Origin: Candidatus Babeliales bacterium
Lineage (GTDB): Bacteria; Babelota; Babeliae; Babelales; JANWKD01
DNA: 64,000 bases
Direction: 5' to 3'
Assembly (NCBI GenBank): GCA_963762115.1
Contig: CAVXJH010000006.1
Location: 480,001-544,000 of the forward strand
In this document: piece after piece, positions 6,594-34,410 of the stretch
How positions within the stretch are numbered: position 1 is the first letter of the stretch
How the letters are laid out: each line of letters opens with the position of its first letter
The notes under the pieces: model-generated
Seen by the model: the letters and a program-made list of their open reading frames with translations, nothing else
Told to the model about the DNA's origin: nothing
The model's database searches: none
Translations under genes and position numbers: made by a program

Positions 6594-7493
6594 TTAATTT
6601 CCCCTTTTGTCGCCAGAATTGTCATATCTTTCTAGTAATTTAATAACTTTTGTAATAAAATTTTGAAAATTTGATGGTGGTTCGTCTAATTCTCGAATTA
6701 TTTTATGGGTGTAATGCAAAGGGCCAGAGGGAATAAATTTTGCATTTCCACAATTAAAATGATCATAGGCAGGACAGAAACAAACTGGCAAGGGGATACC
6801 TTTATTGATGATAGCTCCCTTTTTTAGTAAAAATTTTAATCTTGATAGTCTTTTCTTAAAATCTTTATTTCTTTCAATAAGAGATTCGATGATATTATTT
6901 GGTAATGATATTTTTTTGCTCAATAAAAAAGATACAGGTTCAGTTGAATCGAGATATTCACAAGCATTTTTCATGAGTTGTTCAGAAGATACAATGTCGG
7001 TATATTCTATGTTTGGGCCCCAAAAAGATCTTTTTGCCGAACTTCCTTCTACTATTTTTTTGTATTCTTGATCAAAAAACTTTAAAACGGTTTTATCTTT
7101 TTCATTGAGGTATTCATGCATAAGCATAGCATGTACTATCGTGGCTTTTTCATACAATTTTAATGTTTCATCTTTATTGTTTTTAAGATTGTTGGTTGCG
7201 ATATAGAGTTGTAGTTCTAGTAAATCATGTGCAGGAAATTGTTGAATGGTTTTTGATAGAGAATATATGTCTTGGCATGAAATATGTATTTTAAAAAGTT
7301 CTAATGAAAGTTCACTTGGCAATACAACATTTTCTAATTTTTCCATTGATTCGCTGTTTTTATTTTTTGAAAAACTTTTTATACATAATTCTGTTAAGCG
7401 AAGAGGTTGTTTTAATTCATTCATCGGATAACAATTAAAATTATGGGATATCCCAAAAAGCAAAAGAAAATAAAGATGATTATTTTTTAACAT
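6594..7493 (-). CDS. Secreted hypothetical protein with a BC-box-like motif and a degenerate ankyrin-like region
   Basis: Signal peptide; RLTELCIKSF..LPSELSLEL; LKFLLKKGAIIN. Confidence 0.55.
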   Translation of the reverse strand: MLKNNHLYFLLLFGISHNFNCYPMNELKQPLRLTELCIKSFSKNKNSESMEKLENVVLPSELSLELFKIHISCQDIYSLSKTIQQFPAHDLLELQLYIATNNLKNNKDETLKLYEKATIVHAMLMHEYLNEKDKTVLKFFDQEYKKIVEGSSAKRSFWGPNIEYTDIVSSEQLMKNACEYLDSTEPVSFLLSKKISLPNNIIESLIERNKDFKKRLSRLKFLLKKGAIINKGIPLPVCFCPAYDHFNCGNAKFIPSGPLHYTHKIIRELDEPPSNFQNFITKVIKLLERYDNSGDKRGN

Positions 7494-7505: not shown

Positions 7506-8678
7506 TTATTTTGAAATAGTTAGTTTTTTTAAAATTTTATTAAGAATAATGATTAATCCTCCATCGCTCATGACATTTGCTGCTGTTCCGAAACTATCCT
7601 GCAATAAATATAGTGTGTGGATGATTCCCTCCATAGCAGGATCAAATCCTAAAATAGAACGTAAGAGGGGTAATATTACAATAATACCTCCTCCTGGGAC
7701 TCCAGAAATGGCAAACATGGCCATGCAAAAATAAAAGATAAACCAAGAAAATGAGAGTAGCGATGGCAAAGATCCTGTGAAAATTAACATAGTCATTAAA
7801 GCAAACATGGGCACCGTGATAGCATCGCCCGTAAGATGAAAATTGGCCATAATTGGCACTGAAAGATCAACTAATGCATTATCATTAACATTTTTTTTAG
7901 TAACATTTAAGGTAACTGGTATAGAGGCAACACTTGACATAGTGCTAAAGGCAGTGAAGTAACTTGGTAAAGCATTTTTGAGTGCATGAAAACATTTGTT
8001 ATACGAAAAACCTGAACCAATAAAATAGAGCAAGGTTATATATAAAAATTGTAGCAATAGTATGATAACAAAAATTTTACCATATTGAGTAAAGAGGGCA
8101 GCAAATGATCCTTCATAGTGGAGTTGCAGCATAAACCCTACAACATACAGAGGGACACAGGGGATAAATATTTTTACAAGAAATTGCTCTAATAGTCTCT
8201 TGCAATAGTTAATTGATTTTTCAACGGTGCTATTGTGTAGGTAAGAAAAAAAACAACCGGTCACGAGCGCTGCGAGCATTGCATTTTGCGCGCAAAAGGG
8301 TAACGGTATGCTTAATGAAAAATATGGTTGTAATATTTTTGTGGTAGTTTCAAAATTTTGTATGGGTTCTTGGTGAAGAAACCCTAAAACTCCATTACCA
8401 ATAAGTGTGGCAAGAAAGCTTGCAAAAAGATTAGAGAGTACGATAGCTAATACTATAATGCTTAACACGAATGGAACGCTTTTTCTTTTGAAAGAAAAAA
8501 TGGCCGCAACGATAAAAATGAAAACCATAAAAGGAACAAGGGCTGCCAATAATTCTTTGAAAAGCAAACTAAAGGTATAAAAAGCTCGTATGCAAAATAA
8601 TGGTAGAATATTGCCAAAAATGATAATGCCACATGCAATTAATAATAATTGTACAGGCAAAGAAACTTTACTGTTCAT
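7506..8678 (-). CDS. DAACS family amino acid:cation symporter, probably for neutral amino acids
   Basis: AFSTMSS.ASIP, GVPGGG, DSFGTAANVMSD; multiple TM helices. Confidence 0.88.
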   Translation of the reverse strand: MNSKVSLPVQLLLIACGIIIFGNILPLFCIRAFYTFSLLFKELLAALVPFMVFIFIVAAIFSFKRKSVPFVLSIIVLAIVLSNLFASFLATLIGNGVLGFLHQEPIQNFETTTKILQPYFSLSIPLPFCAQNAMLAALVTGCFFSYLHNSTVEKSINYCKRLLEQFLVKIFIPCVPLYVVGFMLQLHYEGSFAALFTQYGKIFVIILLLQFLYITLLYFIGSGFSYNKCFHALKNALPSYFTAFSTMSSVASIPVTLNVTKKNVNDNALVDLSVPIMANFHLTGDAITVPMFALMTMLIFTGSLPSLLSFSWFIFYFCMAMFAISGVPGGGIIVILPLLRSILGFDPAMEGIIHTLYLLQDSFGTAANVMSDGGLIIILNKILKKLTISK

Positions 8679-8820
8679 AAAGATCTTTCTTTATTTAAAA
8701 TATGTATAACAAATCTTATCAGCAACAAAATTATTTGATTAAAGGTAATAATCTTCTCAAGTTGTTGATGAATGAACTTAGTATTAAAAAAATGATTGTG
8801 GGGAAAATATATATACTGCC

Positions 8821-8961
8821 TTAGGCAGTTGTAGTTGTAGTTTTTGATGTTGCTTTAGTTGTTAAAGCAAAGAATGCAGAAAAAATAGAAGTATTGATTA
8901 CTTCTTGATTGCGAAAAATCGGTAGAGAGAATTGGGCGTTATCTAGTTTAAAGCAACGCAT
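8821..8961 (-). CDS. Putative Thr-rich leader peptide (46 aa)
   Basis: AAGGAG RBS; MRCFKLDNAQFSLPIFRNQEVINTSIFSAFFALTTKATSKTTTTTA*; lies upstream of the symporter. Confidence 0.7.
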   Translation of the reverse strand: MRCFKLDNAQFSLPIFRNQEVINTSIFSAFFALTTKATSKTTTTTA

Positions 8962-9064
8962 TGCAAACTCCTTATGTTTTGCAAAAAAAATACATTTATT
9001 AAAATTATATTGTTTCTACAAAAATAAGTCAATTCTTTTTTGTTATATTTCTAAATGGAAATTA

Positions 9065-10894
9065 TTAAAGATCTGTATCCTGTTGATGTTCTTGTGCTTG
9101 TTTTTCCCATAGGCGAGCATAAAGAGCATTATTTTTGAGAAGTTCCCTGTGTGAGCCTTGCTCAACAATGGAACCATGTTCAAGGACAATGATGCTATCG
9201 GCATGGGTGACGGTTGAAAGACGATGAGCAATAATGAGCGTTGTTGATCCAGATGATATTTCTTCAAGATTTTTCTGTATTTCTTGTTCGGTTCTTGTAT
9301 CAAGAGCAGAAGTTGCTTCATCAAAAATATAAATTACGGGGTGATGAAGGAGGACCCGTGCAATTGCTACACGTTGTTTTTCACCGCCTGATAATTTTAA
9401 TCCACGTTCGCCAACCATGGTATTGAGGCCATCAGGTAATTTTTTAATAAAATTTTCTAAATGAGACAAACGAACTGCTTTTTCAACTTCTTCTTTTGTG
9501 GCAGATGGTTTGCCATAGGCAATGTTATAATATAATGAATTATTGAAAAGTACCGTATCTTGAGGAACGATACCCATAATTTTTTGGAGAGCTTCTTGTT
9601 TGATTGCACGAATATCATAATCATTAATGAGAATGCTTCCTTGGGTAATATCGTAAAATCTGAATAATAAGCGCGCAATGGTTGATTTTCCTGAACCAGT
9701 TGGTCCAACAATGGCAACGGTGTGTCCAGCGGGGACAACAAATGAGACATCTTTTAGGATAGGTCTTCTGGAATCATACCCAAAAAATACATGATTAAAG
9801 GTGATGGTGGCAGTGTCAATTTTTGGATTTAATGCGTTGGGTGCATCAGTGATTTCTGGTTTTAATTGTAATAAATTAAAAACCGCTTCCATATCAGTCA
9901 AGCCTTTACGAATTTTTCGCAATACGTAACCAAACCAACTTAAAGGGGTTACAAATTGAAGAAGGTAGCCATTTACTAAAATAAAATCACTCACATTCAT
10001 AGTGCCTTTAATGACATTGTTCCCAGTCATCCAGGTTAATGTTATTAACCCTATTCCTAGAACCACTCCTTGGCCTAGATGCACTAATTCTGTGGTAACG
10101 TGATATGCCGTTGTTGTATCTTCGCGTTCTTTAAGAATGCGATTTGTTTGATCATATTCAAATCGTTGATTGCAAAAATATTTGACTGTTTCAAAGTTGA
10201 GTAAACTATCAACAACGCGAGCTCCGGCATTGAGATTCTTCTCATTAGAAATTCTTTGTGCATTTGTTGACCATTCCATGCTAATGGAACTGAAAATTAT
10301 ATAACTGACTAAAATTGAAAAAAGAGTTAGGCCATACATTGCACCATATAAATACCATAAAATGGTGACTGCTACCAAAATTTCAGTAACAGTAGGAATG
10401 ATTGAAAGAAAAATACCTGAAAAAATATCAGGAAATCCATCTTGAGCTTTTTCAATGGCACTCGTAATTGCGCCAGTTTTTCGCTCTAGATGAAATCGTA
10501 ATGATAATACATGAAAATGATTAAATAATTTTAAACTGAGCAATCTAATGCCATGTTCCATAACCCGAAACATTACTAATTCTCTCATTTGCACCGTTAT
10601 CTGACTAAGCATCCATAAAACACCGTATGCTAAAAGAAAAAATTGGGTGACATACATTGAGTCTTTTGGTGTTTCAAAAAGAGAAATTAATTTTTTTAAA
10701 ACCAAAGGAATGCTTAAATTAAGTGCTATGCTTATAAAAATAAACAGAATAGAAATACCAATGCGCATGCGTAGGCGCCAATCTGAAATCCACAAATAAG
10801 GCAGCAATTGAAAAATAACTTTGTAGGGGCTCACTTTTTTTTTGTGATGAGCAGCTGAAGGCGCGGCGATATCCTTCTCATCTATTTTTTTCAT
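9065..10894 (-). CDS. ATM1/HMT1-type ABC half-transporter (TMD+NBD)
   Basis: LRFHLERKTG, DSLLNFETVKYF, GPTGSGKS, LSGGEKQRVAIAR, DEATSALD. Confidence 0.93.
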   Translation of the reverse strand: MKKIDEKDIAAPSAAHHKKKVSPYKVIFQLLPYLWISDWRLRMRIGISILFIFISIALNLSIPLVLKKLISLFETPKDSMYVTQFFLLAYGVLWMLSQITVQMRELVMFRVMEHGIRLLSLKLFNHFHVLSLRFHLERKTGAITSAIEKAQDGFPDIFSGIFLSIIPTVTEILVAVTILWYLYGAMYGLTLFSILVSYIIFSSISMEWSTNAQRISNEKNLNAGARVVDSLLNFETVKYFCNQRFEYDQTNRILKEREDTTTAYHVTTELVHLGQGVVLGIGLITLTWMTGNNVIKGTMNVSDFILVNGYLLQFVTPLSWFGYVLRKIRKGLTDMEAVFNLLQLKPEITDAPNALNPKIDTATITFNHVFFGYDSRRPILKDVSFVVPAGHTVAIVGPTGSGKSTIARLLFRFYDITQGSILINDYDIRAIKQEALQKIMGIVPQDTVLFNNSLYYNIAYGKPSATKEEVEKAVRLSHLENFIKKLPDGLNTMVGERGLKLSGGEKQRVAIARVLLHHPVIYIFDEATSALDTRTEQEIQKNLEEISSGSTTLIIAHRLSTVTHADSIIVLEHGSIVEQGSHRELLKNNALYARLWEKQAQEHQQDTDL

Positions 10895-32289: not shown

Positions 32290-34410
32290 TTAATTAATTT
32301 TTTCTTGAGCTTTTTTAATGTGATTATTCATTTCTTTTACAACGATATTGGTTGGCAGAGGTGATGTTTCCAATCCATAATCCCATTTCCATTCTTTTGG
32401 ATCGCGAGGTTCTTCAAGGCGAGAAATTCTATTAAACCATACGCCATCATGTGTTTTTGCAAATTCATTAATGAGATTAAAATCGTCTTTTTTTTGGAAT
32501 TTAGAAAAGAGAAGAACGGGCATATGATAGGCAAAAATATGTTGCCGTTGCAGCCATTCATAATGACGATAAAAATCATTATTGAAGGTTGCAAGTATAA
32601 TTGGATCTTGCGGCGAGCTTAAACCTGCTAGTATGCCAAGATAAAACCAGGAATGGGGTAAATGTATGTTATAAGCAGCAAGTAAGGCATGCGGAAATTC
32701 TTGATTAAAATAGTGTTTTATTTTTTTGCCAACGAGGAATGCCTCGTGTTTTAAAAAGACAAAATAATCATCAAATTTTTGAGCATCTAATAAATAGCGT
32801 ATTCTATCCTCAAAAGAGAGTGATAAAAGGCAGAGCATATTCCGTGATTGAGCATAACGTTGCCATGTATAGTCTGAAAAATCCATAGTATTGGTATATT
32901 GTCCGCTTTGTGTTTGAGCATGATACATTTCAAAATCTAAAAAAATACCATCAATAGTTACTTGATGATTACTATTTTGCCAGGCAGATTTAAAATTTGT
33001 ATAGACATCTAAGAGTTCTTTTTGCCAAAAATGCTCAAAATCAAAGGGTGATGGGATTTTTGAGTATTCAGTGCCATAAACATCACGTACTGGATGTGCC
33101 ACTTTTGCCGTTGCATAATTACTGGTAATGTCTGTTCCAATAAAAATATGGGGAGTTGCCGTTGCATTATCTCTTTTGTGTGCGGCTGAAAAGGCTTTAT
33201 TAAAGCGATCGATTGAATCTAAAAATGTATTTTTTTTATCTTTCATTAAGGCATTTTCGCTCAAATACCATTCGGGGTTTAACTCAAACCAAAGAAGATT
33301 AATGCCAGATGCAAATAAGTTTTCAACGGCTTGTTTTTCTTTTTCAAAGTAAGGTTCCAGGCCTCCCCATCCACACCAAATATCATTAGTATTAATCCAT
33401 GCATATTTATTTTTATGAGTTGCATTATTGCGTTGTATACTCAAGGTATTCTTTAACGTTATTTCATGTTTTTGCGTAAAAACAGCGGGTAGTGTTAAAT
33501 TCTTGTGAGTATCTTGTGGCAATGCGTGCATGCTGGTTGCTTGATATATTTCAGCGATGAGGCTGTGTACTTGCGATAAAAGTATAGTGCGCAAAGAATA
33601 ATCAATAGGATTATAAACAAAACTCTCTTTGATATCGGCAAAAGTAAGTAACCCTGTTTTAGTAATAAAGAATTGATTGTTGGTAAGGGTATTTTTTATA
33701 TAAAGGCCAAGTGGATATGTTTTAAGGAGAGCATTTTCTGCAAATGATGGAACTGTTTTAAGGATTGTCGTTTTTTGAGTTGGATCTTTGATTTCAAGAT
33801 TGGTGGAAGGTAGTTCTTTTTTTTCTCGTGTGTGCAGAAGTGCCGTATTATAAGAACTACTTTTCATGTTGTCCGGTTGAAGTAGTTCGTATAAAAAAAT
33901 ACTCATTGCAGGTTTAATGGTTGATTCATTCGATGGTTGAGTTATTTGAAAAACTCTACATAATTCTTCGAGTAACAAAGCATTTAAGGCATTGTTTGCT
34001 ATGCCAACATCGGGCAACAAGAGAGTAATTACCTTGTTGCGCTCTTGTGATATCGTGGTGGCAATAGTTAAAATTCTTTGTAAAACAGGGTGTGTTATTG
34101 CTGTTTTTTGTAATCGTGCTTCTAGATAATTTTTTAAAAATGATCCATCAATGGTGATAAAAATGGTGTCAGCTGCTGTTATATCATCTTTTGTTACCGT
34201 ATAAAATTCTTTAAAAAGAGTAGTAAAACCTACTGATCGTGCAAAGACAAAAATTGAGTTGAAAATGTATTCATTATTGAAACCGGTATCGATAAATAAT
34301 AACTTTTTTTCAGTCATGCAATTTTCTTGGATTGGTGTTGGCAATTGAGAAAATAATTGATTGAATGATACTAAAAACAAGATAACCCAGAATGCATTAT
34401 TTTTATACAC
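32290..34410 (-). CDS. Secreted protein with a possible glycoside hydrolase-like C-terminal domain
   Basis: Signal peptide; GINLLWF and IDGIFLDFEMY resemble TIM-barrel GH motifs; function uncertain. Confidence 0.5.
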   Translation of the reverse strand: MYKNNAFWVILFLVSFNQLFSQLPTPIQENCMTEKKLLFIDTGFNNEYIFNSIFVFARSVGFTTLFKEFYTVTKDDITAADTIFITIDGSFLKNYLEARLQKTAITHPVLQRILTIATTISQERNKVITLLLPDVGIANNALNALLLEELCRVFQITQPSNESTIKPAMSIFLYELLQPDNMKSSSYNTALLHTREKKELPSTNLEIKDPTQKTTILKTVPSFAENALLKTYPLGLYIKNTLTNNQFFITKTGLLTFADIKESFVYNPIDYSLRTILLSQVHSLIAEIYQATSMHALPQDTHKNLTLPAVFTQKHEITLKNTLSIQRNNATHKNKYAWINTNDIWCGWGGLEPYFEKEKQAVENLFASGINLLWFELNPEWYLSENALMKDKKNTFLDSIDRFNKAFSAAHKRDNATATPHIFIGTDITSNYATAKVAHPVRDVYGTEYSKIPSPFDFEHFWQKELLDVYTNFKSAWQNSNHQVTIDGIFLDFEMYHAQTQSGQYTNTMDFSDYTWQRYAQSRNMLCLLSLSFEDRIRYLLDAQKFDDYFVFLKHEAFLVGKKIKHYFNQEFPHALLAAYNIHLPHSWFYLGILAGLSSPQDPIILATFNNDFYRHYEWLQRQHIFAYHMPVLLFSKFQKKDDFNLINEFAKTHDGVWFNRISRLEEPRDPKEWKWDYGLETSPLPTNIVVKEMNNHIKKAQEKIN

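Follow-up and report, generated by a model that had tools for sequence, protein, structure and literature searches.

Attenuators of the thrL type (the Thr leader of Rfam) consist of an upstream open reading frame (uORF) that has its own Shine-Dalgarno (SD) sequence, contains cognate codons in runs, and precedes genes serving that amino acid, an arrangement shared by the leader described here. In the classical form, the uORF is followed by an intrinsic terminator and a competing antiterminator. Listeria Rli60 is described as a classical amino-acid leader-peptide attenuator (PMC5864092). Actinobacterial poly-Cys leaders are reported to have features also seen in our leader, namely a codon run near the stop codon, no conserved terminator, and a polypyrimidine spacer (PMC1262725), and to occur, as here, at several loci per genome (PMC1262725; bioRxiv 10.1101/834739). 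A role for Rho in these Cys leaders was proposed in 2005 and rated weak in the same source, which also reports that codon swaps in the ilvB leader of S. coelicolor were without effect (PMC1262725). The poly-Cys small ORFs are described as leaderless, and the one tested, a mycobacterial leader of similar appearance, is reported to occlude the downstream ribosome-binding site (RBS) by pairing with its SD rather than to act by termination (bioRxiv 10.1101/834739). In tnaC, speFL, and cruR, a ribosome at or near the end of the uORF shields a Rho site, as we propose below for the present locus, and the stall is described as depending on the nascent peptide together with a ligand (PMC12360218).

The locus lies in a window of 64,000 nucleotides, the whole stretch of DNA analyzed, from a Candidatus Babeliales genome, and all of its features are on the minus strand. 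A gene for a 390-aa SDF/SLC1-family amino acid:cation symporter (7506..8678; PF00375), predicted to import neutral amino acids (Thr/Ser), is separated by a 142-nt spacer without a canonical intrinsic terminator (8679..8820) from a leader ORF of 46 codons (8821..8961) that is rich in C and poor in G (34 C, 13 G). The SD of the leader, AAGGAG (8968..8973), lies 6 nt before its ATG. The 46-aa peptide ends in ...TTKATSKTTTTTA directly before the stop codon, with 8 of its 9 Thr residues within the final 13 codons (8824..8862); these eight, all ACA or ACT, are the putative sensing codons. The UAA stop forms the loop of a 6-bp hairpin, ACTGCC-TAA-GGCAGT (8815..8829), and next to it lies a pyrimidine-rich, G-poor tract (8751..8814) that may contribute to a Rho loading site. 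The original prediction had described the ORF and its SD, the Thr-rich end, the hairpin around the stop codon, and a pyrimidine-rich stretch with 142 nt to the transporter start, and all of these were found at the positions given. A sigma-70-like promoter, TTGACT-17-TATAAT (9004..9032; 11 of 12 consensus matches), falls outside the coordinates of that prediction and was absent from it. Because this near-consensus promoter, with a predicted transcription start near 8997, stands only 33 nt past the stop codon that ends the ABC transporter gene upstream, the leader is probably carried on a separate transcript. A 299-aa hypothetical gene (6594..7493) starts 12 nt 3' of the transporter and is probably co-transcribed; a Pfam scan of its product gave no match.

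The Thr tract is not explained by chance. When 8679-9064 was shuffled 5,000 times with its dinucleotides preserved, a count of 8 Thr in 13 codons never arose (the best shuffle had 7, once), and the leader ORF was the only one with this density among the 5,502 intergenic small ORFs of the genome. It also ranked first for C-terminal codon runs among the genome's 334 SD-led small ORFs. The exclusive use of ACA and ACT was rejected as a family trait, as these codons account for 29 of 41 Thr codons in nine Thr leaders versus 65% genome-wide. Another Thr-rich ORF, at C3:204283, has no hairpin and precedes a thioredoxin reductase-like gene; it was left out of the counts.

The transporter passes the gathering score of PF00375 and has a fold of the GltPh/ASCT type. 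In alignments, its segment D361-S-F-G364-T falls opposite DMART/DMGRT of aspartate carriers, DRLRT of EAAT1, and DRSCT of ASCT2, which places Gly364 at the position of GltPh R397, an Arg in EAAT1 and GltTk and a Cys in ASCT2. The claim that Gly stands in place of the dicarboxylate-binding Arg was therefore right. Of 41 Babelota homologs, 40 had a motif that could be read, and none of these has Arg at this position. Replacement of that Arg in GltPh (R397C) is reported to abolish Asp transport and to confer Ser/Ala transport (PMC5750217). The SLC1/SDF carriers of the SstT/ASCT type share the fold and likewise lack the TM8 Arg for the second carboxylate, but the present transporter carries Gly where they have Cys/Thr, and HLTGD replaces their TM7 NMDGT motif. 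Assignment to the SstT Ser/Thr transporter was rejected, with a score of 50 bits against NCBIfam NF010151, far under its cut-off of 308. On sequence grounds, the protein is predicted to import Thr or other neutral amino acids.

The gene neighborhoods of transporter orthologs provide evidence for threonine that is independent of the leader. Matches to the transporter were present in 46 of 261 genomes of the phylum, a few of them weak, and loci from 43 Babelota genomes were compared. In five genomes (G057, G031, G047, G011, and G214), thrS is the next gene downstream of the transporter; one gene intervenes in G257, and the two are divergent in G246. These seven thrS-linked transporters occupy scattered branches of a FastTree tree of 41 proteins, a distribution that fits an old transporter-thrS association; deep support in this tree is weak, and the order of events was not taken from it. 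Leader codons and thrS linkage are two independent lines that point to Thr as the likely substrate of an uncharacterized SLC1 subfamily. In the source genome, which is 95% complete, neither homoserine dehydrogenase nor thrC was found over the cut-off; the sole thrC-like match fell below it and is presumably closer to a cysteine synthase. Babelota are auxotrophic parasites of protists, and amino-acid pathways in Babelota/Dependentiae are described as incomplete and dependent on uptake (PMC4776705). A metagenome scan yielded one locus, which had no upstream DNA.

The leader itself is conserved but patchily distributed. A Thr-rich uORF with a terminal hairpin precedes the transporter in 5 of 43 genomes (the source genome, G057, G214, G257, and G147), and thrS is directly preceded by a Thr-rich leader in 9 of 89 upstream regions (G001, G003, G149, G033, G159, and G160, and more weakly G250, G022, and G012); the 89 comprise 72 regions from the rule-based survey described below, 16 additional ones, and G159. 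The other 38 of the 43 transporter genomes and 80 of the 89 thrS loci have none. A search for the pattern in 261 phylum genomes, made without regard to position, returned 15 matches, six with a perfect ACTGCC-TAA-N(0-1)-GGCAGT hairpin; the other nine were judged not to be leaders. All six perfect hairpins, which span two families, end Thr-rich ORFs in ...TTA before the stop, five upstream of thrS and one at the transporter of the source genome. These six leaders share the block ACTGCCTAA(N)GGCAGTA without change, and the remainder diverges; in the alignment of the six peptides (24-46 aa), the invariant columns are limited to M1, one Thr, and the final Ala. Conservation at the peptide level was accordingly rejected outside the tail, and an apparent CFKL likeness to the leader peptide of G033 did not align. 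The thrS gene of the source genome has no leader and is preceded by a canonical terminator; in its congener G001, the leader is on thrS, and the transporter was not found there with the query used. Taken together, the Thr leader is real and conserved.

Two of the transporter loci show rearrangements. In G147, an inserted inverted-repeat element (L045:720-1000) separates the Thr leader from the transporter, and a similar copy of the element lies downstream of the transporter gene. In G257 (L040), a short ORF that starts like thrS (MKEKDLSV...) lies about 390-340 nt upstream of the transporter, 5' of the leader, and is perhaps a relic of a thrS operon rearrangement.

Several RNA features bear on how such a leader could act. 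In a set of 41 leaders that was picked by eye, includes many related genomes, and underlies the hairpin, terminator, folding, and composition counts given here, 19 have the stop codon in a hairpin loop, compared with 4 of 1,291 ordinary genes; in the source genome, four of the five SD-led small ORFs with this feature are leaders. A canonical terminator occurs in 4 of the 41 leaders and is absent from the leader at the present locus. Under a stricter terminator rule, its 6-bp stop hairpin fails, and no alternative stem is predicted at the locus, in line with the earlier statement that no classical terminator/antiterminator pair is obvious. The spacers between leader and gene, 52-276 nt long, are pyrimidine-rich (37.9 vs. 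29.9 per 60 nt, with the background taken from the source genome alone), and so are the leader ORFs; in both, C outnumbers G. In the tract after the Thr leader, C exceeds G by 9 in 60 nt, at the 95th-98th percentile of the genome's intergenic windows. From mid-ORF onward into the spacer, there are 7-12 C and 1-5 G per 40 nt, and by composition C exceeds G over about 200 nt of leader ORF and spacer; the spacer itself is more U-rich than C-rich, and C about equals G in its last 72 nt. Both rho and nusG are encoded in the genome. An Rfam search of 8500-9200 found no leader or riboswitch family, with two chance matches (E = 0.44 and 4.1), and a T-box riboswitch was rejected, as RF00230 had no match in the genome.

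These features suggest a mechanism in which the leader very probably senses charged tRNA(Thr), since relatives have homologous leaders before thrS, the transporter and thrS are neighbors in several genomes, and the terminal codons change with the downstream gene. With less assurance, though still somewhat on the favorable side, we propose that the leader gates Rho-dependent premature termination before the importer gene. When Thr is plentiful, the ribosome would finish and leave the leader, exposing the stretch with excess C (the ORF and the first 60-70 nt of the spacer), on which Rho could load and end transcription ahead of the transporter gene or soon after its start. When Thr is short, the ribosome would stall at the last Thr codons, hold the stop hairpin open, split the Rho loading site, and block Rho, so that the importer would be made. 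The stop hairpin would serve as a pause or timing element rather than as a terminator. The placement of cognate codons against the stop makes sense if the stalled ribosome is a shield, as in tnaC and speFL (PMC12360218), and from this together with the RNA features above we infer Rho termination gated by charged tRNA. Counting against this reading, a stalled ribosome would shield only the beginning of the spacer, most orthologs have no leader, the mycobacterial poly-Cys leader is reported to act on translation (bioRxiv 10.1101/834739), and codon swaps in the S. coelicolor ilvB leader are reported to have made no difference (PMC1262725). Of the attenuation originally predicted, described as translational or Rho-dependent, the sensing of Thr was supported, the translational switch at the RBS found no support in folding, and the Rho route is favored as a putative mechanism.

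Other readings of the same leader differ mainly in the step that follows stalling. The hairpin and the U-rich bases after it might act as a weak intrinsic terminator, assisted by NusA/NusG and blocked by the ribosome stalled for Thr-tRNA without any antiterminator; the invariance of the hairpin across the six Thr leaders, U-runs within about 14 nt of the hairpin in many leaders, and the leaders that do pass the terminator rule are in line with this. However, the 6 bp at this locus are followed by AUAUAUAUUUU, unlike the canonical terminator that the genome places before thrS. From general coupling geometry, moreover, the hairpin appears too near the stop for an intrinsic terminator relieved by starvation, as polymerase would pass it before the ribosome reached the last Thr codons, inverting the logic. 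We consider this reading unlikely. Leaders of genus g21 carry a long terminator-like hairpin with the stop codon within its 5' arm, which also speaks for intrinsic termination; these longer hairpins may follow the same logic by way of intrinsic termination. A post-transcriptional response to Thr-tRNA, through release of the RBS, re-initiation, or mRNA decay, has a reported precedent in the mycobacterial poly-Cys small ORFs (10.1101/834739), and the transporter RBS is weak and lies within a local hairpin in the predicted fold. Against it, the predicted energy for opening the RBS window is 7.7 kcal/mol in the free RNA and 8.1 kcal/mol with a stalled ribosome, the mean change over the 41 hand-picked leaders is 0.06 (above 1 kcal/mol in four), and spacer length varies from 52 to 276 nt. 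Folding thus predicts no freeing of the SD by stalling, a switch of the Ms5788A type was rejected, and post-transcriptional control is in our judgment about as improbable as a weak terminator.

Two further readings question the Thr-tRNA signal or the function itself. The nascent peptide could arrest the ribosome at the stop codon upon binding free Thr, as in TnaC or SpeFL; the length of the leader (46 aa), the conserved stop-codon context, and a hydrophobic middle segment in many leaders are compatible with this. Yet the six peptides share three invariant columns and no conserved exit-tunnel motif, the codons at the end differ according to the cognate amino acid, and such an arrest would induce the importer and thrS at high Thr, so that we regard it as very improbable. 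The leader could also be a relic of an ancestral leader-transporter-thrS operon, no longer regulatory here or never so. Its absence from most orthologs and the repeat that parts it from the gene in G147 agree with a relic, but its promoter, SD, open frame, and perfect hairpin are all intact and its Thr run is the longest of the set, and we give this reading only a small chance.

Charged-tRNA sensing coupled to Rho, the reading we prefer, would extend to leaders with other codons. The source genome carries a Met-codon leader before genes for a SAM hydrolase, a cupin, and an EamA transporter, a Tyr-codon leader before two DIT1/PvcA genes, an Ile-codon leader before a hypothetical gene and ileS, a leader ending in ...IITA before a brnQ-family gene, and a Phe-codon leader before a hypothetical gene. 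We applied a fixed rule for picking uORFs, with misses counted, which selected uORFs in 11 of 15 SAM-hydrolase, 24 of 45 brnQ, 8 of 72 thrS, 9 of 44 transporter, and 4 of 30 ileS regions. Over the final 12 codons of these uORFs, Thr made up 33 of 204 codons before the transporter and thrS versus 21 of 468 elsewhere, and Met made up 39 of 132 codons in the SAM-hydrolase uORFs against 23 of 540 in the others. Val and Ile were mildly raised in brnQ uORFs, and ileS uORFs showed a weak Ile enrichment (p = 0.055), all p-values for codon enrichment being overstated because related genomes are not independent. In several genomes, brnQ lies just upstream of ileS, paralleling the transporter-thrS pair. 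No Phe or Tyr leaders were found before pheS or tyrS in five genomes each. We put at slightly below even the chance that Babelota run a phylum-wide set of modular sensors, in which terminal codons retuned to Thr, Met, Ile/Val, or Tyr control Rho-gated importers, synthetases, and scavenging enzymes. Their shared build would be an SD-led uORF with cognate codons against the stop, the stop in a small hairpin, and a pyrimidine spacer; if this is true, leader codons would reveal what orphan transporters carry.

Individual leaders of this kind show further features. Met leaders before SAM hydrolase (G000:C3:276883-276785, L089; L142-L155) end in ...MA before the stop. SD-led uORFs of 35-60 codons are widespread before brnQ-family genes (G000:C3:24166-24017, L070; L056-L085, L092-L108), with ends enriched in Ile, Val, Ala, Cys, and Met; in the brnQ leader of G004 (L056), a frameshift has apparently produced two ORFs that overlap. 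A Tyr-rich leader with a 12-bp stop hairpin (G000:C3:291409-291561, L090) precedes two tandem DIT1/PvcA (PF05141) genes, whose products both have N-terminal hydrophobic segments; the DIT1/PvcA family uses Tyr. A Phe-rich leader (G000:C3:286326-286174, L051) precedes a 457-aa gene without a Pfam match, whose divergent neighbors we take to be an aminotransferase-like gene and an ABC transporter cluster. Between an Ile-rich leader (G000:C3:225316-225459, L050) and ileS lies a 305-aa hypothetical gene, and in G001 an Ile leader is directly on ileS.

Transporter orthologs elsewhere in the phylum have other upstream surroundings. The ortholog in G007 follows a different leader (L007:1205-1430; G007:C1 about 32790-33015) composed of two multi-stem repeats in tandem, between which there are apparent compensatory changes (CUAC/GUAG vs. 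CUGC/GCAG; fold z = -2.6), and then a long terminator-like hairpin. It had no riboswitch match in Rfam, and its pattern was matched exactly only in G007 among 261 genomes, with three two-mismatch matches; it is a candidate tandem riboswitch, possibly sensing an amino acid. Many orthologs of family f19 are arranged head to head with the gene of a conserved membrane protein (L016:1-1398, minus strand; similar in L004, L017, L018, L022, L026-L030, and L036), and the 466-aa part of this protein that was scanned had no Pfam match. In G243 (L032), the transporter follows what we take to be a 5S rRNA gene and a terminator.

We found no report in the open literature of attenuation in Babelota/Dependentiae, and no mention of attenuation or threonine in the portion of PMC4776705 covered. 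Nor was a report of Thr leaders before an SDF transporter found in the open literature, though earlier comparative predictions may exist beyond it. The kind of device is already known; in the same open literature, this architecture and its reuse across Babelota were not found, and terminator-less Rho control gated by charged tRNA with swappable codons was not found as a demonstrated mechanism. The leader points to a way in which intracellular parasites with tiny genomes, in which no T-box was found and amino-acid synthesis is lacking, could gauge host supply, and it offers a simple test case for the 2005 idea that cognate-codon leaders without terminators act via Rho.

By the tests applied, the leader belongs to none of the thrL, T-box, SD-occlusion, or arrest-peptide groups. 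Unlike the thrL type, it has no terminator/antiterminator pair and no Rfam match, its cognate codons reach the stop, the stop lies in a hairpin loop, the ORF is long (24-46 codons), and the genes that it precedes, an importer gene and thrS, belong to auxotrophs. In contrast to the poly-Cys small ORFs, the uORF is SD-led, no pairing with the SD is predicted, and one architecture serves several amino acids. Whereas tnaC, speFL, and cruR rely on a peptide and its ligand, the peptide here is not conserved, stalling would follow from a shortage of charged tRNA, and Rho is the presumed effector. The leader thus probably resembles tnaC in geometry, with a ribosome near the stop shielding a Rho site, and thrL in signal, which is read through cognate codons.
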